Positions 4,306-53,400 of a stretch of DNA of 64,000 bases are shown here, one piece after another. The stretch's first letter is position 1. Every line of letters begins with the position of its first letter. The position numbers and the translations under genes were made by a program. The stretch is from Squalus acanthias (taxonomy: Eukaryota). Under the pieces are notes generated by a model. That model saw only the letters and a list, made by a program, of their open reading frames with translations. It had not been told where the DNA came from and made no database searches. The stretch lies in the NCBI GenBank assembly GCA_030390025.1, contig JASTWF010000033.1, positions 4,156,001 to 4,220,000 on the forward strand, given 5' to 3'.

Positions 4306-4307
4306 TA

Positions 4308-8668: not shown

Positions 8669-8869
8669 CCTGGCCGTCCGGAGACGGGCGGCAAATGTAC
8701 AGAATTTTCGGTTTTAAGTAATTGACTTTTGGTGGTTATGGTTATCATTAGTTTAGTTGTTTGTAGAGATTTTTTTTAAGTTTAAGGGCTTGATTAATCA
8801 TCCAGCCAAAGAACCTTTCTGGGACATGGATATATGTTTTGTGTGTGCCCCTACAGAAAGGACTTCGGA

Positions 8870-11209: not shown

Positions 11210-11480
11210 ATTTTGTCTTTTAATTAAAAAAATTGTATGTGTGGTGTGTCATTTTTATGATGTGTATGATGTGTTTTTCCAAGCTGTGCAGGGGTGTCGG
11301 ACACTCTCCGTGCTTGGATGTGAAATAAAGATTGATTCTTACCTGTATGTACCTGAAACACCAGTTTTAAAAGGGGAATGTATGTTTGGGTTTTTAGTTT
11401 AGGTAATACAGGGGAAGGTTGGTTTTCGGGGATCGGAAATTTTGCTCACCTGTTAATGATACTAATTCAGTTTTCGTATC

Positions 11481-11491
11481 AAAGTGGGGGA
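11481..11491 (+). promoter_or_regulatory. Polypurine tract before the 3' LTR
   Basis: aaagtggggga immediately precedes the TG of the 3' LTR. Confidence 0.8.
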
Positions 11492-26559: not shown

Positions 26560-29500
26560 TGTGCTGCTCAATCCCCGAGAAAAGATTCCTCCCCCGCGCC
26601 CAATCCATCACAAACCTTTTGCCTCGTATAGTTTTCCATTGAATGTTTGTTGTAATGCCAGGTCAGTATCTGTAGACCAGAAAGGGGTAAAATAGTGATG
26701 GGGTCCACCATCCTCCAGGGATTTACTAAACCAGCCTGATTTGGATAAAAATCCAACAAAAAACTCCAAAGATCTTGGGAAAACTCAAGGGAAATGTGAG
26801 GCTATTCACTTTGGTAGCAAGGATAGAAAATGGAGAGAAACTTTCAAATGTTGGTGTTCAGAGAGATTTGGATGTCCTCGTGCAAGAAACACAGAGAGCT
26901 AACATACATGTACAGCTCAAATAAGGAAGGCAAATGGCATGTTGGCCTTTATTGCAAGGGGGTTGGCGGAAAAGTGTGAGGTGTTTTGCTACAATTGTAC
27001 AGTGCCTTGATCAGACCACATCTGGAGTACTGTGCACAGTTTTGGTCTGCTTATCTAAGGAAGCATGTACTTGCCTTGGAGGCGGTGCAACGAAGGTTCA
27101 GTAGATTGATTCCTGGGATGAAATGGCTGTCCTATGGTGAGACATCGTGTAGAATGGGCCTATACGCTCTGGAATTTAGAAGCATGAGAGGTGATCGCAA
27201 TGAATCATACAAGATTCTGAAGGTGATTGACAGGGTAGATGCTGAGAGGTTAATTCCCCTGGCGGTAGTGCCTATAACTAGGAGGCAGAGTCTCAGGATA
27301 AGGGGTCGGCCATTTAAGACCGGGATGAGGAGGAATTTCTTCATTCAGAGGGTTGTGAATATTTGGAATTTTCTGTCACAGAGGGCTGTGAATGCTGAGT
27401 CTTTGAGTATATTCAAGGCTGAGAGCAATTGATTTTTGTACCCTAGGGGAATCAAGGGATATGGAGATCGGGCGGCAAACTGGAGTTGAGGTCGATGATC
27501 AGCCATGACCTTACTGAATGGCAGAACAGGCTCGAGCGGCCATATGGCCTAGTCCTGCACCTATTTTTTATGTTCTTATGTTCAGGGACACGATTGAAGG
27601 GTGATAAAAAACATAAGAACATAAGGAATAGGAGAAGGAGTACGCCGTTCAGCCCCTCGAGCCTGCTCTGTCATTGAATATGATCATGGCTGATCTGATT
27701 TTGGCCACAACTTCACTTTCCCGCCCGCTCTCCATAACCCTTGACTCCCCTGTCGCTCAAATATCAGTCTTTCTCCTCCTTGAATATATTCAATGACACA
27801 GCATGCACAGCTCTCTGGGGTTGAGAATTCCAAATTTCACGACCCTCTGAGAGAAGGAATTCCTCCTCATCTGCGTTTTAATTGAGCGACACCTTCTACT
27901 GAAGATATACCCCCTCGTTCAAGATTCCCCCACGAGAGGGGACATCCTCTCTGAATCTACCCTATCAAGCCTCCTGAGAATCTTATATGGTTCAATAAGA
28001 GGACCTATCATACTTCTGAACGTCAATGAGTATAGGCCCAACCTGCTCAACCTTTCTTCATAAGACAACCCCTTCAACTCAGGAATCAACCTCGTGAACC
28101 TTCTCTGAACTGCCTCCAATGCCACTATATCCCGCCTTTAATAAGGAAACCAAAACTGAACGCCCTGTGCAGCTGTCGTAAGAGTTCCCTACTGATATAC
28201 TCCATCCCCCCTTGCAATAAAGGTCAACATTCATTTGCCTTCCTAATTAATTGCTGCACCTGCATGCTTACTTTTTGTGTTTGATGTACGATGACCCCCA
28301 GATCCCTCTGTGCCGCAGCATTTTGTAGTCTCTCACCATGTAAATAATAATTTGCTTTTCATTCTTCCTATCAAAGTTTATAACCTCACATTGTCCCACA
28401 TTATACTTCATCTGCCAAGCTGTTGCCCTTTCACTTAACCTATCTATCTCCCTTTCCAGACTCTCTATGTCCTCCTCACAACTGGTTATCGCACCAATCT
28501 TTGTATCATTAGCAAACTTGCAACAGTATACTTGGTCTCTTTTCAAAGCCACGAACATAGGTTGTAAATGGCTGAGGCCACCGGATAAAATAATTTATTT
28601 TCCAAGAGATGGAGGAGAAAAAATGTGGAAAAGAAGACGTTTGCACTTAAAGCGGAATGGAATCTATTCTACTTACAGTTGGAATGCCTTGTTTCTGTGT
28701 GACACGGACTGTGAAAAGTGAGAGTACTTTGCCTTAACAGACCCTGACGCCGGCCTCCCAGCTGAAGGCTTCTGGCAGCTGTTTTTGAAAGCATCAAAGA
28801 TCTAATGAATTAAATTGGCTAGAAACATTCTACGTACCTTTTCAGAACACCTTCACTCGATTGCCATTTTCTCTCAGAGCTCCCGTCCTGAGGTGAGCAG
28901 CCACAAGGGTTACTGGAGCTTCCACATGCACCCATCCAAATGAGCCCCCGCCGAGGGAAACATCAAATTGGAGACACGGTTTGGCCCCGCTCCCTCATTT
29001 CCCTGCCATTACAATATCTGTGCATGTTGTGGGCACAGATGCTCCACACCCATTTTTCCAGAGGACGTCTAGGGAATCCCATGGATGGAGGGAGAGCGTC
29101 ACGAGGCTCCATCCCTTTTCCTCGCCTTTGCCCCGGGGAATTTAGCGTTCTCCAGACCCATAGAAGAGGAATATTGGGGTCTGCATCATGCCCACCGATT
29201 CCTCCTCCTGTCCATGTATGATGTGCTAGCTGCCGAGTGCAGCTCCTGCGCAAGATAACTACAACTGATGAATTGTTACCAGGGGATAAAACCTGTCTCC
29301 AGGTGACATCACAAAGGAGCCAGGATCCAATCACACAGCAGGCAGCGCAGGCTGCGCCCACAGGCGGTGTGGTAGGATGACATGGCCAAGCTCTGCTCCT
29401 TGTGCAGTATCACTGGACTGGAGCGCAGGATGCAGGATCTGACCATTTGTGTTATGACCCTGTCTCCGAGCCCCGCTGCCGCCTAACGACGCCCCAGGCA

Positions 29501-29800
29501 GAGAGCACAGCCTCCAATATTAGGTTTTATGACTCTTGAATCGCAACATCCTAATGTGAGATCCCAGTTCTCAATGTCCCCGTCATCCCAATATCTCCAC
29601 ATATCTTTCCTCACCTTTGCAACTGGGAACTTAGCATTCCCCAGGCATATAGAAGAGGAATATAGGGACTTGTGTCACATCCAAAGTTTCCTCCTGCTGT
29701 CATTGTATGATGTAAAGCTGGACATTGTCCGTGCTCCCCTCGTTGTCAATTCGATAGTTGTGAATTTGCCGTGTTATCCTTTACTATACATTAAGCAGTC
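26560..29800 (-). pseudogene. Unknown gene family, copy M2 (promoter at about 29245-29365), split by CR1 insertions at about 26790-28545
   Basis: 28580-29720 is collinear with 21500-22600; 26600-26780 is collinear with 21320-21500. Confidence 0.6.
26790..28545. mobile_element. Two tail-to-tail CR1 3' fragments (26790-27581 +, 27610-28545 -)
   Basis: LIRPHLEYCAQFWS; ALEAVQRRFTRLIP; tails cttatg / cataagaacataag. Confidence 0.9.
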
Positions 29801-30267: not shown

Positions 30268-30598
30268 AATGTTAATGGGGCCGAGACCCTGGTTAATGAC
30301 GCCGCAATCCCGGTTAATGGGGCCTAGACCCCAGTTAATGGGGCCACAACACCAGTTAATGAGGCCACCACCCCTTTTAATGGGACCGTGACCACGGTTA
30401 TTGGGACCACGACCCCGGTAAATGGGACCGTGACCCCGGTTAATGGGACCACAACACCGGTTAATGGGGCCGCGACCCCAGTTAATGGGGCCGCGACCCC
30501 GGTTAATGGGACCGTGACCCCGGTTAATGGCAACACGACCCTGGTTAATGGGACTGCGACCAAGGCTAATTGGACTCTGACCCCGGTTAATGGGGCCG
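30268..30598. repeat. 21-bp minisatellite (ccggttaatggggccgcgacc), about 15 copies
   Basis: gttaatggg recurs every 21 bp. Confidence 0.9.
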
Positions 30599-30602
30599 CT
30601 CC

Positions 30603-31937: not shown

Positions 31938-32383
31938 CTTGCCACCAGAAGCTGTTCTCAACCCTGCAAATTGAAACCTCATACTATCCACAACCAATAT
32001 GAGTGCACGAGTCTCTTTCATACTATACAAGCCTACCTGAGAGCAGCTGAGACACAAACTATCCGTAATTCCAGTGTGAGCTGCTCACCAGTGTTCCCTT
32101 ACATTCTTACAAAATTGTGCCTTTAATCACTACATTGCATGCATACTACCAATAAATCATGGTACATCAAAGGTACATATAACTGCCACAGAATAACAAC
32201 ATCAACTAAACAACCAGGCTCTCAGCTCTTCTAATTGTTATATTGCCGCAATCAATCCTGAACAGAGTTATCAAGTTGACACATTCAGGTATGGCTGAAG
32301 GTCTCTTTCACATCCTATCTTTCCCCTAAAGTCATCATTTCCCCAAAATTATCTTATCCAATTTACAGCCCAGACTCAGCCTA

Positions 32384-33680
32384 TTGTTATTGACTAACAT
32401 TCACTACAAGCCCACCGACTCCCACAGCTACCTGGACTACACTTCCTCCCACCCCGCCTCCTGTAAGGACTCTATTCCATTCTCCCAGTTTCTCCGTCTC
32501 CGCCGCATCTGCTCTGATGATGCCACCTTCCATACCAGTGCTCCCGACATGTCTTCCTTTTTCCTCAACCGAGGATTCCCCTCTACCGTGGTCGACACGG
32601 CCCTCGACCGTGTCCGTTCTATCTCCCGCACATCTGCCCTCACCCCTGCCCCTCCCTCCCGGAACCACGATAGGGTTCCCCTTGTCCTCACCTTTCACCC
32701 CACCAGCCTCCATATTCAACGGATCATCCTCCGCCATTTCCGCCACCTCCAGCGTGATCCCACCACCAAGCACATCTTCCCCTCACCTCCCCTTTCAGCA
32801 TTCCGTAGGGACCGCTCCCTCCGCGACACCCTAGTCCACTCCTCTACCACCCCCAGCACCCCTTCCCCTTCGCCCGGCACCTTCCCGTGCACGCGCAGGA
32901 GATGCAACACATGCCCTTATACCTCCCCTCTTCCCACTGTCCAGGGCCCCAAACACCCCTTCCAGGTGAAACAGCGATTTACTTGTACTTCCTGCAATTT
33001 AGTATACTGTATTCGCTGCTCACGATGTGGACTCCTCTACATTGGGGAGACCAAACGCAGATTGGGTGACCGCTTTGCGGAACACCTCCGTTCAGTCCGT
33101 AAGGGGGACCCCGAGCTCCCGGTGGCCTGTCACTTTAATTCACCGCTTCACTCCCACTCTGACCTCACCGTCCTCGGCCTATTACACTGTTCCACGGAAG
33201 CTCAGCGTAAGCTCGAGGAACAGCACCTCATCTTTCGTTTAGGCACGCTACAGCCCTCTGGACTCAATATCGAGTTCAACAATTTTAGATCATAACCTCA
33301 GCTCCAATCACATTTATATTTTATTTTATCCACCCTTTTATTTGTTCCCCCCCCACCTTTTTTTTCCTCCTAGAAGCTGGCAGCTGTCCTTCATTCTGCC
33401 AGTGGATTTCACACTTCATTCAGCCTTAATCTGTCACATTAACACCACCTCTAGCCTTGCATATCTCTTAATGTCTCTTAATGTCTCTTCATCTCCACCT
33501 TTGTTCCTTTATCCCCTCCCCCTTTTCCCAGCTTTACCCTGGCCTTAAATCTATTTGATTTCCGGCTCTTCCCAGTTCTGATGAAAGGTCATCGACCTGA
33601 AACGTTAACTCTCTTTCTCTCTCCACGGATGCTGCCTGGCCTGCTGAGTTTTTCCAGCGTTTTCTGTTGTTATTTCAGCC
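32384..33680 (+). mobile_element. 5'-truncated Penelope-like element: uninterrupted RT thumb/linker plus GIY-YIG endonuclease (32384-33295) and 3' region
   Basis: HYKPTDSHSYLDYTSSHP, SQFLRLRRICS, C..RRCNTC, NLVYCIRCSRCGLLYIGET, RFAEH, VACHFN, PSGLN. Confidence 0.92.
33574..33610 (+). ncRNA. Minimal type I hammerhead ribozyme motif of the Penelope-like element
   Basis: agtt-CTGATGA-a-aggtc-atc-gacct-GAAA-cg-TT-aact: stem I agtt/aact, stem II aggtc/gacct, palindromic aacgtt stem III. Confidence 0.75.
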
Positions 33681-35399: not shown

Positions 35400-37680
35400 T
35401 ACGTCATGTGCGTTAAACTGGGAAAAAAGGGGAAATCACACTGCTGGGATTGTACTGTAGACCCCCAAATAGCCAGAGGAAAATAGAAGAGAAAATATGT
35501 AGGCAAATTTCTGAGTAGTGCCAAAACAATAGGGCAATAATAGTAGGGGATTTCAACTGCACTAATATTAACTGGGATAGAATTCGTAAATGCATTCAGG
35601 AGAAAATTTTTAGCCAGAATGTAGCAAGCCCAACAAGAGAGCACAGAAAATACTGTGGATGGCAGCAGGAAGTTGCAAAAGCATATTGATATAAGTGAGT
35701 GAGAAATAATTGTGGCGGATGTACTTTAATGTGGGAAAGTGTGTGGTCATCCACTTTGGACCTAAGAAAGATCGATCAGTGAATTTTATAAATGTTAAGG
35801 AGTTACGAACGGCGGTGGAGCGCCGACATTTAATGGTCCAAGTACAAAACTAACTAAAAGATAGTGGATAGATACCAACCTAATTTAAAATAAAGGCTCA
35901 TGAAATGTCGCCCTTTTTTTCAAGTGGCTGGGATACAAAGGATTGGAAGTTAAGTTACCGTTGTATAAAGCTCTAGTTAGACACCTATTAGATTATTGTG
36001 CTCAGGTCTGGTCACCGCAAATCCACCAGAATGATACCGGGACTAAAAGGATTAAATTATGAGGACAGGTTGCATAGACTGGGCTTGTAATCCCTTGAGT
36101 ACAGAAGATTAACCGGTGATCCAATTGAAGTGCTTAGGATGATCAAAAGGAGTTCGTAGGGTAGAGAGAGAGAAACATTTAAATTTCTTTGGGAGTGTCG
36201 AGATCATGGGGTTATAATTTGACAAATATGTTAGAGTTTTTTGAGGATGTAACTGGCAGGGTAGATAAAGTGGAACAAGTGAATGTAGTATATTTTGATT
36301 TTCAAAAGGAATTCGATAAGATGCCACATAAAGGGCTGTTATGCAAGATAAGGGCTCACGGGGTTGGGGTAATGTATTAGCATGGATAAAGAATAGGTAA
36401 CGGACAGAAAACAGAGAGTAGAGATAAACGGATCATTTTCAGATTGGCAGGCTATAACTAGTGGAGTGTCGCAGGGATAAGTGCTTGGGCCTCAGCTATT
36501 CACAATCTAAATTAACGACTTAGTGGAAGGGACCTAGTGCAATGTATCCAAGTTTTCTGACAATACAAACGTTGGTGGGACAGTGAGCTGTGAGAAGAAC
36601 GGAAAGAGTCTGCAAAGGGATATAGACAGGTTAATTGAATGGGGAATATGGTGGCAGATAGAGTATAATGTGGGAAATGTGAGGTTACCCACTTTATCAG
36701 GTAGAATAGGAAATAGAATATTTTTAAATTGTCAGATACTATTACATTTTGGCGTTCAGAGAGATTGCGATGTCCTCGCAGAAGAAACATAGACAATTAG
36801 CATGCAGATAAAGCAAGCAATTAGGAAGGCAAATAACATGTTGGCATATGTATTGGGAGAGAGTTGGAGTACAAGAGTAAGGAAGTATTGCTATAATTGT
36901 ACAGGGCATTGGTGAGACCACACCCGGAGTACTGTGCACGGTATTGCTCTCTTTATCTGAGGAAGGATATACTTGCTGTAGGGGCGGTGCAGCAAAGGTT
37001 CACTGGATTGATTCCTGGGATAAGGGGGTTGTCCTATGAGGAAATATTGAGTAGATTGGGCCGATACTCTCTGGAGTTTAGGCGTATGAATGGTGATCTC
37101 ATTGAAATAGCTAAGTCTCTACGGGCGATTGAAAGGATAGATGCTGTGAGGTTGTTACCCCTGGCTGGAGTCTCTAGAACCAGGGCGCACAAACTCAGGA
37201 TCAGGGATCGGCCTTTTAAGACGTAGGTGAGGAGGAATTTCTTCACTCAGATGGTTGTGAACCTTTGGAAATCTCTACCACAAAGGGCTGTGGATGCTCA
37301 ATCATCGAGTATATTCAAGGCTGAGATATAAAGATTTTGGACTCTGGAGGAATCAAGGATATGGGGTTAGGGCAGGAAAGTGGAGTTGAGTTCGAAGTTC
37401 AGCCATATTCTCACTGAGTGATGGAGCGGGTTCGAGGGGCCGTGTGGCCCACTCCTGCTTCTAATTCTTATGTACCTTTAAACTCAAAATTAGAGAGAGT
37501 ATATTCAGGAGTGATGAAAGGAAGCAGTTCGTCACACAAAGGTAAGTGAAATCTGGAACTCTCACCTCAAAACACTGTTGAGGGTATGTTACTGATAATT
37601 TAAAACATTTAATAGATTTTGATAGGCACATTTGTTAAGATTTATGGAATCAAGGTGAGTAACTGTAATTAAGATACCGA
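35400..37680 (+). mobile_element. Stacked CR1 fragments
   Basis: YFDFQKEFDKMPH, YRALVRPHPEYC, tail cttatg at about 37470. Confidence 0.85.
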
Positions 37681-40600
37681 TTTATCATGCAATCACAGCA
37701 GGAAGAATCGTTGGATGAGAAACAAGTCCCTATATTCCTCTTCTATGCGCCTGAGGAATGCTTATCTCCCAGTTGCAAAGGAGAGGAAAATATGTGGAGA
37801 CATTGGGAGGTGGGGTCATTGAATACTCGGACCTCACATTAGGATGTTGAGACGCAAGAATCATGAAACCGAATATTGGAGGCTGTGCTCTCTGCTGACG
37901 TGTCTTCTGGGTTCGAAGACAGGGCCATAACATTAATGGGCTGATCCCACAACCTGTGCTCCAGTCCAGTGAGACTGCACCAAGAGCAGAGCCTGGCCAT
38001 GTCAACCTGTCATACTGCCAATGGGCGGGGCCTACGCTGGCTGCTGTGTGATTGGCTCCTGGCTCCTTTGTGATGTCACCTGGAGACAGGTTTTAGCCCC
38101 TGGTTACAATTCATCAGTTATAGTTACCGTGGGCAGGAGGTGGATTTGGCAGCGGGCACTCTGAGTGAGTTTACTCACAACAAATAGGGGAAGGACCGAA
38201 ATGCACAAGATAATTCTAAAGTTATTGAATCAAATGCTATCAATTACAAATATATTGAAATTAAATATAATCAGAGTGACAAGATTAGTTCTATTGTATT
38301 CCAGGTAATGTTCTCGACTCAAACCAGCCGCTGTGTGTTATAGGACAGCTGCCCAGTGTCTCTCTACCAGAGATGGTTACTCTCTTCCTCTGGGTAAGCA
38401 CCTTGCCATTAAGGCTTCCACTGTGATGAGGAGGGCAGGCGGTGAACCCAGGTCCGGCCACCCCAAGATGTGGAGCATCAACGCACGATAGCCCTGAACC
38501 AAATTGGCCACTCACTGCAACCATGAAAACTTAAAATTAGTACAGCGCTCCGCACATAGAGAGACAGCTCAGAACACTTGACATAGCAGGGAGCACAGAC
38601 TGGGTATCAAGCAGGTGTGAGAAAGGGTAGAGGGTGTAGAGAGCTGAGCGCTAGTGAGAGATTAGGTTATTGAGCAGGGTTATAAGGGAGGGCGGGAGTT
38701 CTAGATGCCCAGGCCGTAGTTCATTCAGGAACGACTGCCGACGGTGGAGCAGGAAGAGCGCTTAATGAGGATTAATGCTGTGCCACAGGAGCGGAAGAAG
38801 TGCGGACAGTGCGTACAGTGATGTGTGGCTGGAGGAGACTGCAGGGATTGGGAGGAAGTCAGGCACGCAGGGATTGCAATGGGCGGTAACGCTATTCATA
38901 TCAATTCACTGGAGCACAAGGAGCGAGTGGAAATTTTCAAGAAGGCAGAACATAAGGGTTTGGTCTTTGACCAGGTCAAGTCGTGCAATGTGACATTCGG
39001 AATACCCTTTAGCTTGTGGAGGGGTGAAGTGGGGAGGTTGGTAGGGAGAGCGTTGGAGAGATTGGCATTGAAATGACGGAAGCTGGATTAGGGTTTAGGC
39101 AGCAGAGGGTGGGAAGGCATTGATTTGGAGGTGAGAGATATCATGCTGGTAATGGATTGGGTGTGGGGGACGGACGCTGTACTCAGGATCGAGCAGGACA
39201 CAAAGGATCCACATCTCTGGGCTTAGCCTGAGGTTGCAGTAGGTAAACTGATAGAGTCAAAGCTGGTTTTGCGATGCTGCTTGTGGGAGTCAAAGAGGGC
39301 GGATTCAGTTTGCCTGACATTTATCCGGAGTGAATTTAGGCTTCTCAAGATTTCACTTTTGCACAGACAGTTGGAGAGTGGCAACGCCCTGGGGACAATT
39401 GAGGAGGCGGAGTGTGTCGTTGACTTCTTGTGGGAGCTGGCCACATGATTCCTGATGATATCACAGAGGGATATCATGTATCTGGGGACGATGGAGAATG
39501 ACCAGGTTGCAACATACATGGGAAGGAGGAGGAATTGTTGGAAGTGATTCAGGCCCCTTAATTCCTCTTCTATCCGTCTGGAGAATGCTTGCCCCAGGTT
39601 GAAAGCTTTAGTACAAAGGATGGTGACTCGTGATGCTCTCCCTCCATCCATCCATTTTGATGGTTGCTTGAGGAATCTCTCCGTGGCCCTTGTGGCTGCT
39701 CCCGTATGACCGGGGTTTCTAAGAAGGACAGGCAACCAAGTGAAGGTAGTCCGGAAAATTAAACAGACATTTTTTCCGCCCAGGAATCCATTACATCATT
39801 TGAGGCTGTATACAAACAGTAGCCGGAGGCCTCCAGCGCCGTGGATGGTGTCAGCTTGCTGCAGAGAGACCGTGCTGACACTTTTATCATTCAATGACGC
39901 ACGAAAACCAAGCACCCAATCTCTAGATTGGAGCAGATTATTTCCCTTTTAATTACAATCACCTTTTTTTCCTCATGATTCCACCTTCATCTCTGATACA
40001 AATGTATTTTATCCGCATTCATTCCTCTTAGATTGCTGACCCAAAGATCAGCGAGCTTTCATGTTGGATTGTACCAAAAATCAGTTTGGTTCAGTCCATC
40101 CCTGGAGGGCGGAGGACCCATGACTATTATGCCCCTTTCCCTTCTGTAGATCCTGCCCTGGAATTGAAAGAATACATTTCAGCAAATGATTTTAAACGTC
40201 CTGTCACTGCTCGCGAAGATGAACAACAAGTGATGCAGAATGCTCTTTGGGGTATGCAGTTTTATTCTTGTTTTGAATTGGTCTGTGAAGCTGATTGACA
40301 CCTTCATTTATCAATTAGTTCATGTACCAAGCACTGGCCTGAACTCAGGTACATTCCGCATACTCACAGAGATCAGCACAAGAGACCGAAACATCCCAAT
40401 CACAGGAGCTGATCCAGGAATTGTGCCGCTCTAACTCTGCACTTCAATTAGCAACCTCTAGTTATTAGCCACTGTCTTTTCCCACCCTGCTTAATGATCT
40501 TCTTGAGGCTGCTGCTGGACTATTGCGCGTGAATCTCTTCAAAACTTACAGAATCTCCACATTTTAGCTCTTCAATTCTGTTATTTTAGCTCCGCTTTGA

Positions 40601-40700
40601 AGACCAGGAGCACTATCCAGATATCATGCATGTCCTGAGAGCACGATTGCAGGACTGTACAGGAGATAAGGGACTAACACCAAAGAGGTAGGACATGCTT
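37680..40700 (+). pseudogene. Unknown gene family, copy P1 (most complete): promoter 38020-38135, exon 1 to donor 38165, putative exons 38305-38393, from 39367, 40150-40229, 40349-40528, 40590-40687
   Basis: AG/GT boundaries, phase-compatible last three exons, homology to four other copies; in-frame stops present. Confidence 0.6.
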
Positions 40701-41219
40701 CGAAAATTAAGCAGCTGGTAAAAAGGGTGACGTGTTAAGTGGATCAGTGTGGTGAGCGCCTAGTGAGAGAGAAGTTTAGTGAGGAGCGTATTGAAGACAG
40801 TGAGAGAGGGGACCAGATGTCCAGGGTGCCGGGGCTTGAGGAAAGTCTGCCGATGGTGGAGCAGAAGGAGCGGTTAATGAGGAGTAATCTGATGCCATAG
40901 GAGCGGAGAGAGGAACAGAGTTTGATAAGAGTGATGTGTGGCTGCAGGAGATCGCTGAGATAGCGGGGAACTCAGGCACGATGTGACTGAAAATGGCGTT
41001 ATCGTGTAGACAGGGATAATTGGTTTTGGCTTTGTTCGGTTCAACACTTGCGCTGTGCATTCGGAATAACTTCTAGTTTGTGCAGGTTGGAAGTAGGGAG
41101 GCCCGTAAGGAGAGTGTTGGAGAAATTGAAACTCGAGGTAACCAAGGCTGGATTATTACATTGCATAGGATATACGGCACAGAAACAGGCCATTCGGCCC
41201 AACCAGGCCATGCCTGCGT

Positions 41220-42790
41220 TTCGTTACTGGGAACTGTTGTTAGGAACAGAGTGACTGAGCACTTCGACAAAAATGAGCTGATCAGAGAGAACCAGAATGG
41301 ATTTGTAAGGTAATTCATGTGTAGATGAGGGGTGTGAAGCTTAAGTCCTGTCTCAAGAGCCTAGTTGAATATTGTCAATAGATAGCTAATGTAGTAGATG
41401 AGGGGTGTCTATGGATGTTATTTGTATGAACTTGCAGAAGGCATTCGAGAAGGTTCAACTTAGGAGACTGTTAACAGAAACTAGAGCACATGGAATTGGA
41501 GGCAATTTATTGACCTGGGTAGAGAATTGGTTTGGAGCTCGGAGACAATGTGTAGGGATAATCTGTCTTTTTTCAAATTGGCAGCATGTGACTAATGGTG
41601 TCCCTAGGGATCAGTGCTGGGGGCTCCTTTTTAAACTATGTTTATAAATGACTTGGATGAACCAATAGAATGCAATATGTTTGCTGACAACTCCAAGTTA
41701 GGTGTCACAGTAAATGGTGTGGATGGGAGCAGGAAGTTGCACTGGGACATTGATTAAGTGAGTGTGAAAAACCTGTGTCAGATGGAGATCAATGTGGGAA
41801 GTGTGAGGTCATCCAATTTAAACTACCAAAGATAGATCAGCGTATTTTCTAAATGGTGAGAAGTTGGGAATGGTGGTGGAGCAGAGGGATTGAGGGGTCC
41901 AGGAACAGAAATCACTAAAAGCGAGTGGACAGGTACCAAAAGTAATTTAAAAGAAAGGCTAATGCAATGTTGCCCTTTATCTCAAGCGGCTGGAATACAA
42001 AGGATTGCAATCGACGTTTGTTGTATAAAACTCTGGTTAGACCCCATTTGGAAAACAAAGTTCAGTTCTGGGCACCACAGATTCACCTGAATGTTACCGG
42101 GGCTAAAAGGGTTAGATTATGAGGACAGGTTACAGAGACGAGCCTTATAACCTCCAACATTATTTTTTATTCGTTCATGGGATCTGGGCGTCGCTGGCAA
42201 GGCCAGCATTTATTGCCCATCCCTAGTTGCCCTTGAGAAGGTGGTGGTGAGCCGCCTTCTTGAACCGCTGCAGTCCGTGTGATGAAGGTACTCCCACAGT
42301 GCTGTTAGGGAGGGTGTTCCAGGATTTTGACCCAGCGACGATGAAGGAGCGGCGATATACTTCCAAGTCAGGATGCTGTGTGACTTGAAGGAGAACTTTG
42401 AAGTGGTGGTGTTCGCATGCGCCTGCTGCCCTTGTCCTTCTAGGTGGAAGAGGTGCTGCTGAAGAAGTTTTAGAGAAGTATAGAAGATTAACCGGTCATC
42501 TAACTGAAATGTTTAAGATGATCAAAATGATTTGATAAGGTAGATAGAGAGAAACGTTTTCTTCTGGTGAGGGTGTGGAGATCAAGGTGGGATAATCTGA
42601 AAATTAGAAAGGGTACATTCAGCAGTGATGTCAGGAAGCAGTTCTTCACACAGAGGCGAGTGAAAGCTGGAACTCTCACTCCATAACGCTGCTAAGGATA
42701 GGATATTGGAGATTTCAAAAAGGAGATTGATAGAACTTGTTCGGCAAGTCTATTTAGAGTTATGGAAACAAGGCGTGTAATTGGAGAGAG
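41220..42790 (+). mobile_element. Old CR1 fragment (inverted paralogue of 22600-23800) with a nested minus-strand LINE tail at 42161-42470
   Basis: VVRNRVTEHFDKNELIRENQNGFV versus VVRNRVTKHLDKYELIRESQHGFV on the minus strand at 23700-23790. Confidence 0.85.
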
Positions 42791-44900
42791 GATACATATT
42801 AACATCATACCGTGACAGCAGATGGGATCTTTGGATGTCACACAATTCCAAATATTCCTCTTCTATACATCTGGGGAATGCTTAGTTCTCAGTTGCAAAG
42901 GGAAGGAAACATTCGTGGAGACATTTGGAGGTGGAGGATATTCATAGAATCATCGAAACTTAAGGCACAGAAGTAGACCATTCGGCCCATGTTGTCTATG
43001 CCAGATTGAATTTGGACATCACCTTAGGAGGTTGGGAGGCAATATTCATAAAACCCTAATATTGTGATTTGTGTTCTGTAACTGGGACGTCATTAGTCTA
43101 GAGCTGGGCTCGGAGACAGGTCCTTAAAACTAATGGGCCAATCCTGCAACCTGTGCTCCAGTCCAGTGAGACTGCAACAGGAGCAGATCCTGGCCAAGTC
43201 AAACTGTCACAGCGCCAGTGGGCGGGGCCTGCGCTGGCTGCTATGTGATTGGCTCCTGGCTCCTTTGTGATTTCACCTGGAGACAGGTTTTAGCCCCTGG
43301 TTACAATTCATGAGTTGTAGTTACCGTGGGCAGGAGCTGGAGTTGGCAGCTGGCACATCATACATGGACAGGAGGAGGAATCGGTGGACATGAGACAGAA
43401 CCCAATATTGCTCTTCTATGTCTCTGGAGAATGCTTAGTTCTCCGGGGCAAATGAGAGGGTAAAGTGGTGGAGACTCGTGATATTCACCCGCCACCCCTG
43501 AGATTCCCAAGGCTTCCCCTGAGCAAGTGGGGCGGAGCATCTGTGCCCACAACATTCACAGACATTTCAATGACAGGGACATGAAGGGAGAAAGCCAAAC
43601 GTTCCCTGCCGGATCATGTTTCTGGAGTTGTGGAGATGCGAGGGACTGGCAACAAAGTGATGGAGATGTAAACAGGTAAGTGGAATTTTCTAGCCAAAAT
43701 AATTAATGAGATCTTTGGTGCTGTGTAAAAAACTCCATTCAGAATCCGCCAGTCCCGAGGCTGGTGTCAGGTGTCTGTAAAGGCAAAATACTCACACTTT
43801 CACACTCCCTGACACACTGAAACCAGGCACTCAACTTTAGAGTGGAATAGATTCCATTACTTGTTAGGTGAAAATATCATCTTTTCCACATTATTCAACT
43901 TACATCTCTTGGGACCTTTTATTTTATCCACCTACATTCAAGTGCTAGATTTTGTCCCAAAGATCTGTGGGGTTCATGTTTGATTCTGCCTCAAATCAGG
44001 GTGGTTCAGTCCATCCTTGGAGAATGGTGGACCCAGCACTATTCTGGGTGGTTCAGTCCATCCCTGGAGAATGGTGGACCCATCACTATTCAGGGTGGTT
44101 CAGTCCATCCCTGGAGAATGGTGGACCCAGCACTATTCTGGGTGTTCAGTCCATCCCTGGAGAATGGTGGACCCAGCACTATTCTGTTCCTTTCTGTTCT
44201 ACAAATACTGACCTGGCATTGGAACAAAAATTCTATGGAAAACCTATACGGGACAAAAGTTTCAGGAAAAGGTACTCAACGTCCTGCCACCTCTCCCAAA
44301 GATGAATAACAAGTAATGCAGATTGCTCGTTGAGGTAAGCAGTTTAATTCCTGGTTTGAATTGGCCTGTGCGCATGTCTGACATGTTCATTGATTAATTA
44401 GTTCATGTACCCAGCACTGGCATGAAATCAGGTACATTCCGCACACTCACAGAGATCAGCACAAGAGCCCGAAACTTCCCTACCACAGGAACAGATCCTG
44501 GGAATCTGCAACACTAACTCTGCGGGTCCACTAGGAATCTCTAGCGATCAGCCCCTGTATGCTCCCGCTTCATATTATGATGTTCCTGTGGTTGCTGCTG
44601 GGACATTGCGGGTGCGGGACATGAAACTTAAGAAATGTTCAACCTTTGACCTCTTCAATTCTTATTGTTCAGCTCCTCTTTGAGGACCAGATCCGTCCTT
44701 CAGATGTCCTGCATTTCCTGACAGCACATTTTCACGACTGCACAAGAGGCAAGAGTTTGATGCCAAAGAGGTAGGACTTGTTCAGCCACAAACGTCAATG
44801 TCCATCTTGCTCATCTTTCTAAAGGTACAAACACTGCCCTTCTGTCAGTATCCTCCATCAGCTGCAGAACATCTCTTTCCGTATCCTGCTTCAAAAATAA
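42790..44900 (+). pseudogene. Unknown gene family, copy P2: promoter 43219-43335; putative exons 44205-44312, 44432-44611, 44673-44770
   Basis: Inverted paralogue of 20700-22600. Confidence 0.6.
43999..44185. repeat. 47-bp tandem repeat, 4 copies
   Basis: gggtggttcagtccatccctggagaatggtggacccagcactattct at 43999, 44046, 44093 and 44140. Confidence 0.95.
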
Positions 44901-44919
44901 TATCAGCTTGACAGATATG

Positions 44920-47900
44920 TAGAACCACTACAACCCCAGCACAGGACTGCAAGGGCACAGACCTGTACAATCCCACAGCACTGCACCGTAAGGGCACAAA
45001 ACTTTAAATCCAAGAACATTATTATAAGGACACAGGCCAGTACAAACCCTCAGCATTTTCCTGCAAGGAAACAAACATGTACAACACAAACACAGTCCGA
45101 TTAATAAACAGAGCTGTACCATCCCATCACTGTCCTGTATAAACACCAGCAGAGTCCTATAACTACACAGAACTGTACCTCCCCAGCACTGTCCTTTATA
45201 AACCCCCAGCACTATCCTGTAACTAAATAGAAATGTACCACCCCAGCACAGTCCTGTATAAACCCCCAGCACTATCCGGTACCGAAACAGAGCCGTACCA
45301 CCCCAGAACAGTCCTGTATAAACCGCCAGCACTATCCTGTAACTACACAGAGCTCAACCACCCCAGTATTGTCCTGCATAAACCCCAGCAGAGTCCTATC
45401 AATACACAGAACTGTACCACCCCAGCACAGTCCTGTATAAACCCACAGCAATATCCTGCAACTACACAGAGCCGTACCATCCCACCACTGTCCTGTATAA
45501 ACCGCCAGCACAATCCTGTAACGACACAGAGCTCAACCACCCCAGTATTGTCCTGCATAAACCCCAGCAGAGTCCTATAAATACACAGCGCAGTACTACA
45601 CCAGCACTGTCCTGTATAAACACCCCAGCACTGTCCTGTAAATACACAGAGCTGTACCACCCCAGCAATGTCCTGTTTAAACCCCAGCACTGTACATTTC
45701 GACACAGACATGTAACACACCAGTACTGTCCTGTAAAATACCCCAGCACTGTCCTGTAACTACACAGAGCTGTAAAACCACAGCACTGTCCTTTATAACC
45801 CCCTGCACTGTCCTGTAACTACACATTGCTGTACCACCCCAGCACTGGCCTGTATAACCACCCGCTCACCCACCCCAGCACTGTTCTGTAACTAGACAGA
45901 GCTGTACCACCCCAGCACTGTCCCGTATAAGACCCCAGCACATCCTTTAACTACACAGAGCTGAGCAACCACAGCACTGTCCTGCATAATCCCCCAGCAC
46001 TGTATTGTTAGGACACAGATCTGTACAAAGCCAACACTGTACTGTAAAGCTACAGATCTGTGCATCCCCTGCCCTGCACTGTAAGGACAAATACATGTAC
46101 AACCCCATTATTGTACTATAAGACACAGCAGTTTAAAATAACCCAGCACTGCACTGTAAGGTTACAGAGTTTTACAACCGCCTACACTGCACTGTAAGGA
46201 CTGAGTCATATACAGCCCCGGCACTCTAATGTACGGACAAAGACATGTACAGCCCCGACACCACACTGCATGGACGCAGAACGGTACCCCCCACCCCCAT
46301 CATTGCTCTTTAAGGAGACAGAATTGCACAACCCCAGCACTGCACTGTTAGGACACAGACCTGCACAAGCCAAGCTATGCACTGTTAGGATATAGACCTG
46401 TAGAACCACAGCAATGCACTGTTAGGACACAGAACTGTACAACTCCTGCACTGCACTGTTAGGACACAGACCTGTACAATTCAAGCAATGCACTGTTAGG
46501 ACACAGACCTGTACAACCCAAGCACTGCACTGTTAGGACACAGACCTGTAGAACCCAAACAATGCATTGTTAGGACACAGACCTGTAGAACCTCAGCACT
46601 GCACTGTTAGGACACAGAACTGTACCACCCTAGCACAGTCCTGTATAAACCCCAGCAGAGTCCTATCAATACACAGAACTGTACCACCCCAGCACAGTCC
46701 TGTATAAACCCAAAGCAATATCCTGGAACTACACAGAGCCGTACCATCCCACCACTGTCCTGTATAAACCGCCAGCACAATCCTGTAACTACACAGAGCT
46801 CAACCACCCCAGTATTGTCTTGCATAAACCCCAGCAGAGTCCTATAAATACACAGCGCAGTACTGCAACAGCACTGTCCTGTATAAACAGCCCAGCACTG
46901 TCCTGTAAATACACAGAGCTGTACCACCCCAGCAATGTTCTGTTTAAAGCCCCAGCACTGTACATTTCGGACACAGACATGTAACGCACTAGCACTGTCG
47001 TGCAAAAAATGTCAGCACAGTCCTGTAACTACACAGAGCTGTACCATCACAGCACTCTCCTGTACAACCCCCTGCACTGTCCTGTAACTACACAGAACTG
47101 TACAACCCAGCACTGGCCTGAATAACCATCCCCCCAACCCCAGCACTGTTCTGTAACTAGACAGAGCTGTACCACCCCATTACTGTCCCGAATAAAAACT
47201 AGCACTGCCCTATAACTACACAGAGCTGTACAACCACAGCACTGTCCTGCATAATCCCCCAGCACTGTATTGTTAGGACACAGATCTGTACAAAGCCAAC
47301 ACTGTACTGTAAGGCTACAGATCTGTGCATCCCCTGCCCTGCACTGTAAGGACAAATACATGTACAACCCCATTATTGTACTATAAGGACACAGCAGTTT
47401 AAAATAACCCAGCACTGCACTGTAAGGACAGAGTCATGTACAGCCCCGGCACTCTAATGTATGGACACAGACATGTACAGCCCCGGCACTACACTGCATG
47501 GACGCAGACATGTACAACCCCGGCACTCTAATGTACGGACACAGACATGTACAGCCCCGGCACTACACTGCATGGACGCAGAACGGTACCCCCAACCCCC
47601 ATCATTGTTCTTTAAGGAGATAGAACTGCACAACCCCAGCACTGTACTGTAGAATCACAAAACTGTACAATCCCACAGCACTGTACTGTGGGAACACAGA
47701 ACTGTACAATCCTCCAGCACTGCACTGTAACAACACTCACCTGCACAACCCAAACAATGCACTGTTAGGACACAGACCCGTACAACCTCAGCACTGCACT
47801 GTTAGGACACAGACCTGTACAACCACAGCACTGCACTGCTAGGGCTCAGACCTGTAGAACCACAGCACTGCACTGTTAGGACACAGACCTGTAGAACCGA

Positions 47901-48862
47901 AGCACTGCACTGTTAGGACACAGACCTGTACAACCCCAGCACTGCACTGTTAGGACACAGACCTGTGCAACTCCAGCACTGCACTGTTAGGACACAGACC
48001 TGTACAACCACAGCACTGCACTGTTAGGACACAGACCTGTACAACCTCAGCACTGCACTGTTAGGACACAGACCTGTACAACCGAGCACTGCACTGTTAG
48101 GACACAGACCTGTAAAACCGGGCACTGCACTGTTAGGACACAGACCTGTACAACCCCAGCACTGCACTGTTAGGACACAGACCTGGAGAACCGAGCACTG
48201 CACTGTTAGGACACAGACCTGTACAACCCCAGCACTGCACTGTTAGGACACAGACCTGCCAACCCCAGCACTGCACTGTTAGGACACAGACCTGTACAAC
48301 CCCAGCACTGCACTGTTAGGACACAGACCTGTACAACACCAGCACTGCACTGTTAGGACACAGACCTGCACAACCCCAGCACTGCACTGTTAGGACACAG
48401 ACCTGTACAACCCAGCACTGCACTGTTAGGACACAGACCTGTACAACCCCAGCACTGCACTGTTAGGACACAGACCTGTACAACCCCAGCACTGCACTGT
48501 TAGGACACAGACCTGTACAACCCCAGCACTGCACTGTTAGGACACAGACCTGCACAACACCAGCACTGCACTGTTAGGACAAAGACTTGCACAACCCCAT
48601 CACTGCACTGTTAGGGCACAGATCTGTACAACCCCAGCACTGCACTGTTAGGACACAGACCTGTACAACCCCAGCACTGCACTGTTAGGACACAGACCTG
48701 GAGAACCGAGTACTGCATTGTTAGGACACAGACCTGCACAACCGCAACACTGCACTGTTAGGACACAGCCCTGGAGAACCGAGCACTGCACTGTTAGGAC
48801 ACAGACCTGTACAACCCCAGTACTGCACTGTTAGGACACAGACCTGCACAACCCCAGCACTG
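44920..48862. repeat. Compound minisatellite: 37-bp unit (agcactgcactgttaggacacagacctgtacaacccc) plus related longer variants
   Basis: Homogeneous 37-bp array at about 47750-48862; diverged variants upstream. Confidence 0.92.
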
Positions 48863-48865
48863 CTC

Positions 48866-49912
48866 TGTTTGACCGGTCACGGGGGTTTGACTGGTCCCGG
48901 GGGTTTGACCAGTCCTGGGGGTTTTGCCAGTCCCGGGGGTTTGACCGGTCCCGGGGGTTTGACCAGTCCTGGGGGTTTGATCAGTCCTGGGGTTTTGACT
49001 GGTCCCGGGGGTTTGACCGGTCCCGGGGGTTTGACCTGTCCCGGGGGTCTGACCGGTCCCTGGGGTTTCCACCGGTCCCGGGGATTTGACCAGTCCCGGG
49101 GGTTTAACCGGACCCGGGGCTTTGACCAGTCCCGGGGGTTTGTCCGGTCCCGGGGGTGTGACCAGTCCCTGGGGTTTGACCTGTCCCGGGGGTCTGACCG
49201 GTCCCGGGTGTGTGACCAGTCCCGGGTGTGTGACCAGTCCCGGGTGTGTGACCAGTCCCGGGTGTGTGACCAGTCCCGGGTGTTTGACCTGTCCCGGGGG
49301 TTTGACCGGTCCCGGGGGTTTGACCTGTCCCGGGGGTGTTACCGGTCCCGGGGGTTAGACCAGTCCCGGAAGTTTGACCAGTCCCGGGGGTTTGACCAGT
49401 CCCAGGGGGTTTGACCGGCCCCGGAGGTTTGACCGGCCCCGGAGGTTTGACCAGTCCCGGGGGATTGACCAGTCCCGGGTGTTTGACCAGTCCCGGGGGA
49501 TTGACCGGTTCCGGGGGTTTGACCGGTCCCGGGGGTTTGACCAGTCCCGGGAGTTTGACCAGTCCCAGGGGGTTTGACCGGCCCCGGAGGTTTGACCGGT
49601 CCCGGGGGTTTGACCAGTCCCGGGGGATTGACCAGTCCCGGGTGTTTGACCAGTTCCGGGGGTTTGACCGGTCCCGGGAGTTTGACCAGTCCCGGGGATT
49701 TCATTTGTCCCAGGGGTTTGACCAGTCCCGGGGGGTTTGACCGGTCCCGGGGGTGTGACCAGTCCCGGGGGTTTGACCGGACCCGGGGGTTTGACCGGTC
49801 CCGGGGGTGTGACCAGTCCCGGGGGTTTGACCGGACCCGGGGGTTTGACCAGTCCCAGGGGTTTGACCTGTACCGGGGGTTTGACCAGTCCCGGGGTTGT
49901 GACCTTTCCCGG
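48866..49912. repeat. 18-bp GC-rich minisatellite (gacc[a/g]gtcccgggggttt), about 58 copies
   Basis: Direct inspection; produces the PGTGQT / TSPGGL pseudo-ORFs. Confidence 0.95.
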
Positions 49913-50498
49913 GGCCTTGCTGAGGCCACACCTGGAGTATTGTGTGCAGTTTTGGTCTCCTAACTTGAGGAAGGACATTCTTGCTATTGAGGGAGTGCAA
50001 CGAAGGTTCACTAGATTGATTCCTGGGATGGCCAAACCGACATATCAAGAAAGACTGGATCAACTGAACTTGTATCCTCTGGAGTTCAGAAGAATGAGGG
50101 GGGATCTTATAGAGACATTTAAAATCCTGACCGGTTTAGACAAATTAGATGCGGGCAGAATGTTTACAATGTTAGGGAAAAATAAAACCAGGGGTCACAG
50201 TCTAAGGATAAAGGGGAAGCCATTTAAGACTGAGATGAGGAGGAACTTCTTCACCCAGAGAGTGGTGAATCTGTGGAATTCTCTACCACAGAAGGTTGTT
50301 GAGGCCTGTTCGCTAAATATATTCAAAAGGGAGTTAGATATGATACTCACAACTAGGGGGATCAAGGGGTATGGCGAGAAAGCAGGAATGGGGTACTGAG
50401 GTAGCATGTTCAGCCATGACCGCATTGAATGGCGGTGCAGGCTCGAAGGACCGAATGGTCTACTCCTGCACCTATTTTCGATGTTTCTATGTTTCTAT
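49913..50498 (+). mobile_element. CR1 LINE 3' end with an uninterrupted ORF2 C-terminus
   Basis: LRPHLEYCVQFWSP...GIKGYGEKAG open to stop at 50399; (atgtttct)n tail. Confidence 0.92.
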
Positions 50499-53400
50499 GG
50501 GTCTGTGAATGGAGCTGCATGGGTCTGTGAATTGAGCTGTCTGAGTCTGTGAATGGAGCTGTCTGTGTCTGTGAATGGAGCTGTCTGTGTCTGTGAATGG
50601 AGCTGTCTGGGTCTGTGAATGGAGATGTCTGAGTCTGTGAATGGAGCTGCCAGAGTCTGTAAATGGAGCTGTCTGGGTCTCTGAATTGAGCTGTCTGTGT
50701 ATATGAATTGAGCTGTCAGTGTCTGTAAATGGAGCTGTCTGGTTCTGTTAATGGAGCTGTCTGGATCTGTGAATGGAACAGTCTGTGTCTGTGAATGAGC
50801 TGTCTGGGTCTGTGAATGGAGCTGTCTGGTTCTGTGAATGGAGCGGTCTGTATCTGTGAATGGAGTTTTCTGGGCCTGTGAATGGAGATGTCTGGTTCTG
50901 TGAATGGAGATGTCTGGTTCTGTGAATGGAGATGTCTGGTTCTGTGAATGGAGATGTCTGGTTCTGTGAATGGAGCTGTCTGGTTCTGTGAATGGTGTTG
51001 TCTGGTCTGTGAATGGAGCTGGCTGGGTCTGTGAATGGAACTGTCTGAGGCTGTGAATGCAGATGTCTGGAATTGTGAATGGAGTTATCTGTGTCTGTGA
51101 ATGGAGCTGTCTGAGTCTGTGAATGGAGCTGTCTGGTTCTGTGAATGGAGCTGTCTGGGTCTGTGAATGGAGCTGTCTGGGTCTGTGAATGGAGCTGTCT
51201 GGGTCTGTGAATGGAGCTGTCTGAGTCTGTAAATAGAGCTGTCTGGGTCTGTGAATGGAGCTGCGAGAGTCTGTAAATGGAGCTGTCTGAGTCTGTAAAT
51301 GGAGCTGTCTGGATCTGTGAATGGAACTGTCTGTGTCTGTGAATGAGCTGTCTGGATCTGTGAAATGTGCTTTCTGTATCTGAAAATGGAGTTGTCTGGG
51401 TCTGTGAATAGAGCTGTCTGACTTTGTTAATGGAGCTGTCTGGGTCTGTGACCTGAGGTTTCAGAGTTTTTGAAGTCAGCCGTCTGGATCTTTGAATGGA
51501 GCTGTCTGTGTGTCTGAAATGAGCTTTTTGAGTTTCTGAATGGAGATGTCTGGGTCTGTCAAATGAATTGTCTGAATCTGTTCGTGAAATGAGCTGTCTG
51601 TTTTTTTCAAATTAGCTTTCCATGTCTGTGAATGTTGCTGTCTGGGTCTGTGAATGGATCTGTCGAGTCTGTGAAAGGAGCTGTCTGAGTCTGTGAATGG
51701 AGCTGTCTGAGTCTCTGAATGGAGCTATCGGGGTCTGTGAATGGAGCTGTCTGCGTCTGTGAATGGAGCTGTCTGAGTATGTGAATGGAGCTGTCTGGGT
51801 CGCTGAATGGAACTGTCTGGATCTGTGAATGGAGCTGACTGAGTCTGTGAATGGAGCTGTCTGAGTCTGTGAATGGAGCTATCTGGGTCTGTGAATGGAG
51901 CTGTCTGGGTCTGTGAATGGAGCTGTCTGAGTCTCTGAATCGAGCTGTCTGGGTCTGTGAATGGAGCTGTCTGGGTTTGTGAATGGAGGGGTCTGGGTCT
52001 GTGAATGGAGCTGTCTCATTCTCTGAATGGAGCTGTCTGTGTCTGTGAAAAGTGCTATCGAGGTCTCTGAAATGAACTTTCTGAGTCTGTAAATGGAGCT
52101 GTCTGGGTCTGTAAATGGAGCTGTTTTGGACTGTGAATGGAGCTGTCTGAGTCTGTGAATGGAGCTGTCTGTGTCTGTAAATGGAGCTGTTTGGGACTGT
52201 AAATGGAGCTGTTTGGGTCTGTGAATGGAGCTGTCTGAGTCTGTGAATGAGCTGTCTGGATCTGGGAAATGTGCTTTCTGGGTCTGAAAATGCAGTTGTC
52301 TGGGTCTGTGAATAGAGCTGTCTGACGTTGTTAATGGAGTAGTCTGGGTCTGTGACCTGAGCTTGCAGAGTCTTTGAAGTCAGCCGTCTGTATCTTTGAA
52401 TGGAGCAGTCTGAGTGTCTGAAATGAGCTTTTTGAATTTCTGAATGGAGATGTCTGGGTCTGTCAAATGAATTGTCTGAATCTGTACGTGAAATGAGCTT
52501 TCTGTTTTTTTCAAATTAGCTTTCCATGTCTGTGAATGTTGCTGTCTGAGTCTGTGAATGGAGCTATCTGGGTCTGTGAATGGAGCTGTCTGGGTCTCTG
52601 AATGAAACTGTCTAGGTCTGTGAATGGAGCTGTCTGGGTCTGTGAATGAGCTGTCTGGATCTGTGAAATGTGCTTTCTGTATCTGAAAATGGAGTTGTCT
52701 GGGTCTGTGAATAGAGCTGTCTGACTTTGTTAATGGAGCTGTCTGGGTCTGTGACCTGAGGTTTCAGAGTTTTTGAAGTCAGCCGTCTGGATCTTTGAAT
52801 GGAGCTGTCTGTGTGTCTGAAATGAGCTTTTTGAGTTTCTGAATGGAGATGTCTGGGTCTGTCAAATGAATTGTCTGAATCTGTTCGTGAAATGAGCTGT
52901 CTGTTTTTTTCAAATTAGCTTTCCATGTCTGTGAATGTTGCTGTCTGGGTCTGTGAATGGATCTGTCGAGTCTGTGAAAGGAGCTGTCTGAGTCTGTGAA
53001 TGGAGCTGTCTGAGTCTCTGAATGGAGCTGTCTGGGTCTGTGAATGGAGCTGTCTGCGTCTGTGAATGGAGCTGTCTGAGTCTGTGAATGGAGCTGTCTG
53101 GGTCGCTGAATGGAACTGTCTGGTCTGTGAATGGAGCTGACTGAGTCTGTGAATGGAGCTGTCTGAGTCTGTGAATGGAGCTATCTGGGTCTGTGAATGG
53201 AGCTGTCTGGGTCTGTGAATGGAGCTGTCTGAGTCTCTGAATCGAGCTGTCTGGGTCTGTGAATGGAGCTGTCTGGGTCTGTGAATGGAGCTGTCTGGGT
53301 CTGTGAATGGAGCTGTCTGGGTCTCTGAATGGAGCTGTCTGTGTCTGTGAATGGAGCTATCGAGGTCTCTGAAATGAACTTTCTGAGTCTGTAAATGGAG

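Follow-up and report, generated by a model that had tools for sequence, protein, structure and literature searches.

The question raised by this part of the Squalus acanthias genome is whether a group of exon-like blocks, lying among fragments of long interspersed nuclear elements (LINEs), represents a family of protein-coding genes. The window, i.e. the whole stretch of 64,000 nt that was analysed (positions 4,156,001 to 4,220,000 of contig JASTWF010000033.1, assembly GCA_030390025.1), is vertebrate-like DNA that consists for the most part of LINE fragments, a retrovirus-like element and satellites. A first-pass annotation, made from the letters alone, had proposed a lineage-specific, rapidly duplicating gene family, mostly pseudogenised here, with peptides encoded in exon-like blocks. 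The region is indeed duplicated and exon-bearing, it has no known relative, and some of the splice sites chosen in that annotation are used; the part of the proposal that found no support is that the blocks encode the listed peptides. With moderate confidence we regard them as non-coding leader exons, belonging to a 5' untranslated region (5'UTR), or as exons of a long non-coding RNA (lncRNA), in a spliced unit that has been segmentally duplicated. A coding ancestor of the unit is possible. For the roughly 3-kb stretch as a whole, the most likely identity is an ordinary family of duplicates, either non-coding or fragments of dead genes.

Contig evidence for transcription and splicing of copy P2

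The unit is present in four copies, here called P1–P4 (Table 1). Five sequencing runs contain part of P2, and contigs from four of them, from two studies, were aligned to positions 42700-44915 at 80% likeness. That all runs are RNA is a guess, none of them being recorded as such. The results rest on the entries listed, which comprise 32 of the 117 pieces, 24 of the 86 loose ends, 40 of the 129 differences and two joints. P1, the most diverged copy with 71–76% identity to P2 over the 180-nt and 98-nt blocks, falls below the likeness used, and the contig evidence concerns P2 and its closer relatives; paralogues outside the window are visible only via contigs of the sequencing runs. Contigs lose rare variants, and a minor spliced form could escape.

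The transcribed contigs of P2 are 254–561 nt long with 99–100% identity. One contig of run X2, with 1 difference, contains a GT..AG joint leading from 43675 to 44673, and at the other end of the 98-nt exon the donor at 44770 is used, because contigs with zero differences leave the genome at 44771, followed by 288 (run X3) and 189 (run X5) other letters, and in run X1 one contig ends at 44771 and another begins 30 letters earlier. The acceptor and the donor picked for the 98-nt block in the first-pass annotation are both used in P2 contigs. The next exon falls outside 42700-44915, and eight candidate acceptors are located in 44830-64000, the first at 45068. This exon falls within or past the satellite block at 45–64 kb. 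In addition, an X3 contig of 96% identity begins exactly at 44205, preceded by 142 non-matching letters, and passes the proposed donor at 44312 by 54 nt; the acceptor matching 40150 is probably used in this 96% identical relative.

The same contigs do not bear out the junctions predicted at either end of the 180-nt block. These were placed at 40229/40349 and 40528/40590 in P1, which corresponds to 44312/44432 and 44611/44673 in P2. Neither of the latter is among the listed joints, which concern P2 only, and both are read through. The 61-nt spacer downstream of the block is bridged by contigs at least 99% identical in three of four runs (X1, X3 and X5), its donor is read through in all four, including X2, and one X3 contig that retains the spacer is also spliced at 44770. 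A contig of 88% identity bridges 44432. The 180-nt block of P2 is transcribed, and is unspliced at both ends in the aligned contigs listed. The second listed joint leads from 44878 back to 43129, which fits the head-to-tail layout of P3. Contig cover is thin in 43676-44400 and was not used as evidence.

In runs presumed to be RNA, P2 is represented by transcribed pieces of more than 200 nt with GT-AG splicing, as for an lncRNA or a leader, and the longest closed open reading frame (ORF) in contig-supported isoform segments is 47 codons, the ATG at the end of the 98-nt exon running open into the donor. P2, at least, would then be transcribed on the + strand, with exon A spliced to the 98-nt exon and further to an unseen downstream exon, and an alternative form would retain the 61-nt spacer along with the 180-nt block. 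In the part seen, the RNA appears non-coding, and might consist of leader exons or belong to an lncRNA.

Exon-like blocks and coding selection

The blocks read largely as they had been described. The 180-nt blocks (40349-40528 and 44432-44611 on the + strand, 21157-20978 on the - strand) give the expected peptides, with one stop in P1, and each is preceded by AG and followed by GT; the 98-nt blocks (40590-40687, 44673-44770 and 20933-20836) have frame 0 open in all three copies. AG/GT borders are found around the 180-nt block and elsewhere in most copies, the exceptions being P2, which lacks the acceptor of the 108-nt block (CAA), and P3, which lacks three donors, that of the 98-nt block reading GA. 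The exon-like piece at 40150-40229 is present as claimed; its 80-nt form is restricted to P1, and corresponds to the 108-nt block of P2 and P3 minus 28 nt. The ATG of the block is lost with this deletion, which is seen only in P1 and shifts the frame of the first half of its exon B peptide, giving rise to the peptide DPALELKEY. A TAA near the end of the 108-nt block is common to P2 and P3. The acceptor of the 180-nt block is weak, with 6–8 pyrimidines in 16 positions across copies.

The proposed last intron has the stated length of 61 nt in P1 and P2, is only 44 nt in P3, and is retained in the P2 contigs. Spacers of 61 and 44 nt are unlikely, though not impossible, as introns because vertebrate introns usually measure no less than about 76 nt; PMC9438311 places the peak of vertebrate short introns near this length, with a frequency in teleosts that falls fast below it, and PMC4463651 reports human introns of 37–65 nt, few in number. 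A second stretch of 61 nt, equal in length to the proposed last intron, is located upstream of the 108-nt block (40089-40149, 44144-44204 and 21445-21385). It starts with GT and ends at the acceptor in all three copies, and neither stretch was seen spliced in the contigs aligned to P2. The 47-bp tandem repeat of P2 derives from the start of this upstream stretch (44144-44204).

The first-pass annotation had named dN/dS (the ratio of non-synonymous to synonymous divergence) among copies, and a frame bias in indels, as tests of its proposal. Neither speaks for a protein. The pooled dN/dS in the proposed frame is 0.93 (P1/P2), 1.09 (P1/P3) and 0.80 (P2/P3), with no purifying signal, the intervals including 1 and also about 0.5; with the 108-nt block added P2/P3 gives 0.80 with an interval of 0.43–1.78, a comparison of low power. 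The synonymous share of differences is 0.23–0.29 versus 0.27–0.29 in neutral simulations (P 0.41–0.79), and the variable columns are distributed 30/28/26 over codon positions 1/2/3, showing no third-position excess. Other frames have ratios down to 0.45, and frame 0 is therefore not special. The indels of the exon-like blocks are of 28 nt (P1), 1 nt (the piece 26669-26613) and 8 nt (a paralogue seen in contigs), none of them a multiple of three and none frame-keeping; the 180-nt block is free of indels. The 8 nt are missing from the 98-nt exon of a transcribed, 88% identical paralogue in all four runs. This paralogue is absent from the window, and among its 19 listed changes in the 180-nt block five are synonymous and ten are at second positions.

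Blocks of this kind can be produced by a neutral simulation of three copies, and the open frames are for this reason at most mildly beyond chance. In 300 runs, an AG..GT phase-0 block of at least 60 codons with at most one stop appeared in 43% without indels, and in 24, 11 and 3% with 0.004, 0.008 and 0.015 indel breaks per nt, and a block of at least 32 codons in 48–98%, where neither a pyrimidine tract nor a chain of three blocks was required. The listed peptides are probably open frames that were free of selection while the copies diverged. The motif IIH.QEEE, said to recur about eight times, was counted in eight copies. In the frame first proposed five of these contain a stop, and the variable columns by codon position are flat (16/17/18); it was dropped as an exon on these grounds. 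Its pooled dN/dS is 0.62 in the proposed frame and 1.5 in the other two, from pairs that are non-independent.

No protein family had been recognised at the outset, and no credible relative was found in the protein searches. The 180-nt peptide, as a two-sequence alignment against longer proteins only, gave none among 229 candidates at E≤1, the 98-nt peptide none among 69 candidates, and the 108-nt peptide none among 43 at E≤10; proteins under 75–106 residues are outside these three word-seeded searches, whose blanks are weak evidence. A full HMMER search of 1.84 billion representatives with the 180-nt peptide only returned one match (P0006, E 4e-10), which was rejected as a tandem repeat of about 68 residues with a score summed over eight stretches and a best pairwise alignment of 14/37 identities and 25.8 bits. 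Pfam gave nothing above threshold, with a sub-threshold RIIa match and a match of 7 residues at E 0.47. The former, to the RIIa docking domain PF02197, covers 13 residues in the 98-nt frame of P2 (E=0.016, 15.3 bits versus a cut-off of 22.4). It has no counterpart in P1 or P3 and was taken as chance; the three-copy profile matched no solved structure at E≤5, and there were no matches to solved structures at this level with either profile. The DNA patterns of the unit were found in neither metagenome nor viral contigs, where shark DNA is not expected, and an Rfam scan of 19000-46000 gave no matches. No title on this family was found in the open-licence literature, by which absence from print is not shown. 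No protein-coding parent was found in the protein collections searched.

Copies, promoter-like block and neighbouring repeats

The number of gene-like copies in the window is four and not five as first stated, since two of the pieces, at 28583-29739 and at 26613-26783, follow each other collinearly (equivalent to 43929 and then 43952 in P2) and constitute one copy interrupted by about 1.8 kb of LINE DNA. Five promoter-like blocks of 253 nt are present besides. In P1 a LINE tail, the motif and a promoter-like block are followed by an unrelated insert (about 38160-39500), and this in turn by another motif copy and the exon-like blocks. P3 has LINE fragments, the motif, a type B block (22356-22104), the motif, the 108-nt block (21384-21277), the 180-nt block, a 44-nt gap, the 98-nt block and a head-to-tail type A block (20552-20307). 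The exon A donor of P4 is AAG/GTACGT at 28838.

Table 1. Positions of the copies and of their parts in the window
Feature	Position	Strand	Description	Evidence
Copy P1	37479-40697	+	Mosaic	Self-BLAST, alignments
Copy P2	41223-44890	+	With upstream LINE fragments	Alignment
Copy P3	20219-23790	-		Self-BLAST, alignments, splice-site contexts
Copy P4, 5' part	28583-29739	-	Motif, type B block 29475-29223, motif, exon A	Alignment
Copy P4, continuation past LINE insertion	26613-26783	-	Acceptor and first 57 nt of exon B, 1-nt deletion	
Promoter-like block type A (P1)	37907-38159	+	Donor-like GA/GTGAGT after it at 38164/38165	Sequence
Promoter-like block type B (P2)	43104-43356	+	Directly continues into motif copy	Sequence
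P2 exon A region	43357-43675	+	Consensus donor CAG/GTAAGT at 43675	Junction to 44673 in one run X2 contig
P2 47-bp unit	43999-44186	+	Four tandem copies, P2 only	
P1 exon B	40150-40229	+	80 nt, strong acceptor (15/16 pyrimidines)	
P2 exon B	44205-44312	+	108 nt, acceptor lost (CAA), ATG at 44235, TAA after 24 codons	
P1 180-nt block	40349-40528	+	One frame-0 stop, weak acceptor (7/16 pyrimidines)	
P2 180-nt block	44432-44611	+	Frame 0 open, no ATG in frame 0, weak acceptor (6/16 pyrimidines)	
P2 proposed 61-nt intron	44612-44672	+		Retained in contigs 99-100% identical
P1 98-nt block	40590-40687	+	Good acceptor, donor GAG/GTAGGA	
P2 98-nt exon	44673-44770	+	Both borders used, ATG at 44760 open into donor	Contigs

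The LINE fragments upstream are common to P2 and P3 (41223-42146 matches 23790-22932), and because the copies share them the sequence points to segmental duplication. All copies present in the 64 kb fall in a cluster at 20–45 kb and have been duplicated with introns and flanks, as unprocessed pseudogenes are. The unit lacks discrete ends, flanking LINE fragments being copied along and the ends varying among copies, which counts against membership of a transposable element. The 119-nt spacer (40230-40348, 44313-44431 and 21276-21158) groups P1 with P2, whereas the flanking segments group P2 with P3, and changes found only in P3 amount to 19 of 119 sites in the spacer versus 1–9 in the adjoining segments. 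The copies are therefore mosaics, which suggests gene conversion or recombination between them. A unit of about 2–3.5 kb, carrying the promoter-like block and a few exons, was probably copied several times through local segmental duplication and inversion, and LINE fragments next to it were copied along. Further LINE insertions would later have interrupted the copies, and recombination would have mixed them.

The five promoter-like blocks occur in both orientations, are 82–89% identical and have stops in all six frames. They contain a GC box, ATTGG and TGATGTCA, and a 14-nt stretch, at 43156-43169 in P2, shows no variation among the five, with 85 of 253 columns varying overall. Two of the five are followed by the donor-like GA/GTGAGT and three lead into a motif copy. 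The block may be the promoter of the unit. Further variants are present among the RNA-presumed contigs, and some contigs extend upstream of the motifs (43044-43300), contigs being unable to reveal transcription starts.

The rest of the window contains repeats of several kinds. A retrovirus-like long terminal repeat (LTR) element is located at about 3150-12731 on the + strand, with LTR-like repeats at 3150-4287 and 11496-12731 that are about 1.2 kb each and 77% identical. It has a broken pol with reverse transcriptase (YVDD), RNase H and integrase, and nearly no space for gag. The env-like ORFs, at 8798-11209, are broken as well and have a terminal hydrophobic stretch; these had no Pfam family above the cut-off and matched no structure. 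The reverse transcriptase of the element is closer to solved enzymes of foamy-virus type (E 1e-46) and of murine leukaemia virus (about 1e-42) than to that of Ty3 (3e-27). As a guess, the element is a lokiretrovirus; a term search of the main text of PMC7947760, on these viruses, gave no mention of sharks or cartilaginous fish. A 22-bp satellite of at least 614 copies occupies 50498-64000 and continues past the end of the window, and is adjoined by an 18-bp array of 58 copies (48867-49914), with 37- and 60-bp arrays at 45108-48869. Another tandem array, of 21 bp and about 16 copies, is found at 30271-30599, and has one frame open per strand. An open frame of 321 codons at 32330-33295 on the + strand has a GIY-YIG match at its end (E 2.6e-4, slightly below the cut-off), and presumably corresponds to the end of a Penelope-type retroelement.

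Alternative readings and comparison with known families

Several observations weigh against non-coding leader or lncRNA exons. The junction 43675/44673 comes from one contig, and the runs are presumed RNA from two studies only. The promoter-like block is depleted in CpG, with observed/expected 0.25–0.40. The wide dN/dS intervals (P2/P3 0.43–1.78) leave room for weak selection. When P2 is compared with P3, the three exon-like blocks have 45 differences in 386 sites (11.7%) and no indels, the intron-like DNA 131 in 647 (20.2%) and nine indels (Fisher p=3e-4, for indels p=0.015), a post hoc contrast for which the blocks were partly picked for apparent conservation and the poorly aligned exon A tail, the motif and the promoter-like block were excluded; seven of the nine indels fall within a single AT-rich stretch. 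The non-synonymous divergence of this pair is 0.112 against an intron divergence of 0.202. A coding ancestor stays possible because the 108-, 180- and 98-nt blocks are in phase with a single stop each in P2 and P3.

It is somewhat unlikely, in our view, that the copies are transcribed unprocessed pseudogenes of a lineage-specific coding family with an intact parent elsewhere, in which an ATG in the 108-nt exon would open a frame of about 119 codons through the 180- and 98-nt exons, followed by further exons; the ATG of P1 would then have been deleted, and P2 and P3 would share a nonsense codon. The three blocks in phase (108, 180 and 98 nt), the less diverged and indel-free blocks of P2 and P3, the two or three borders used in contigs and an exon skipping in P2 that is consistent with its lost acceptor at 44205 all agree with such a history, and a bounded block of 60 codons arises by chance in only 3–11% at the two higher indel rates. 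Against it, no pair of copies carries a codon-level signal and P1 has no exon/intron contrast (p=0.19); the frameshifting indels of 28, 1 and 8 nt, the weak acceptor (6–8/16 pyrimidines) and the introns of 44–61 nt oppose it as well. The TAA common to P2 and P3 would predate their split, which makes conserved exons hard to explain by protein selection, no junction is found at either end of the 180-nt block in P2 contigs, and neither the three word-seeded searches nor the full HMMER search returned a protein relative. A bolder proposal, which we consider unlikely, is that the copies, dead or reduced to leaders, stem from an undescribed and fast-evolving coding family of sharks. An intact parent elsewhere would splice the 108-, 180- and 98-nt exons over unusually short introns (119 and about 61 nt) and would have an N-terminus of about 119 codons without relatives in any protein collection; its promoter-bearing core would duplicate like a primate core duplicon and supply DNA further downstream with new starts and leader exons. 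Should an intact, spliced and translated parent be found, it would represent a protein family specific to sharks that annotation has overlooked, and its introns would be shorter than the minimum usual in vertebrates.

It is improbable that the unit, or the 253-nt block with the motif, is a non-autonomous mobile element absent from catalogues (solo-LTR-like or similar), with a promoter and cryptic splice sites from which the transcripts would arise. Promoter motifs and splice donors are common in LTRs, and the block is present five times in both orientations at 82–89% identity with more variants in contigs; against this stand the shared flanking LINE fragments, the ragged ends, the clustering within 20–45 kb with nothing elsewhere in the 64 kb, the lack of a transposase or reverse-transcriptase match in the scanned frames of the unit, and viral contigs free of a pattern match. 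Highly improbable is that the contigs derive from library DNA or intronic background, in which case the region would be silent duplicated DNA and the joints genomic rearrangements. No run is recorded as RNA and most pieces are unspliced, as this would predict, but a joint and three loose or contig ends coincide to the base with consensus splice sites (43675, 44673, 44770 and 44205), in contigs with 0–7 differences.

With exons of a non-coding leader or lncRNA as the preferred reading, the unit would be an ordinary outcome of segmental duplication in a repeat-rich vertebrate genome, and a caution that duplicated DNA can yield "conserved peptides" with AG/GT borders absent protein selection. Whether P2 serves as the working leader of a real gene is determined by the exon after 44770.

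Among known systems, transcribed unprocessed pseudogenes or partial gene duplicates resemble the unit in their clustered partial copies, exon-intron layout, lesions, neutral divergence and low-level, partly spliced transcription. They differ in having a coding parent, and because none was found for the unit in protein collections pseudogene status is not assignable. In the primate core-duplicon families (such as NPIP/morpheus) there are members that are intact and translated, and divergence is faster in exons than in introns. The unit shares with them a duplicated promoter-bearing core, mosaic copies and a high dN/dS, but no intact member is seen in the window and its exon divergence is equal to that of introns (P1) or lower (P2/P3). 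With spliced lncRNAs and 5'UTR leader exons, as represented in the blue shark lncRNA catalogue (PMC11433378), the unit has in common multi-exon GT-AG splicing, no long ORF in the part seen and a retained short spacer, and it differs from them in being a duplicated family with three in-phase open blocks.

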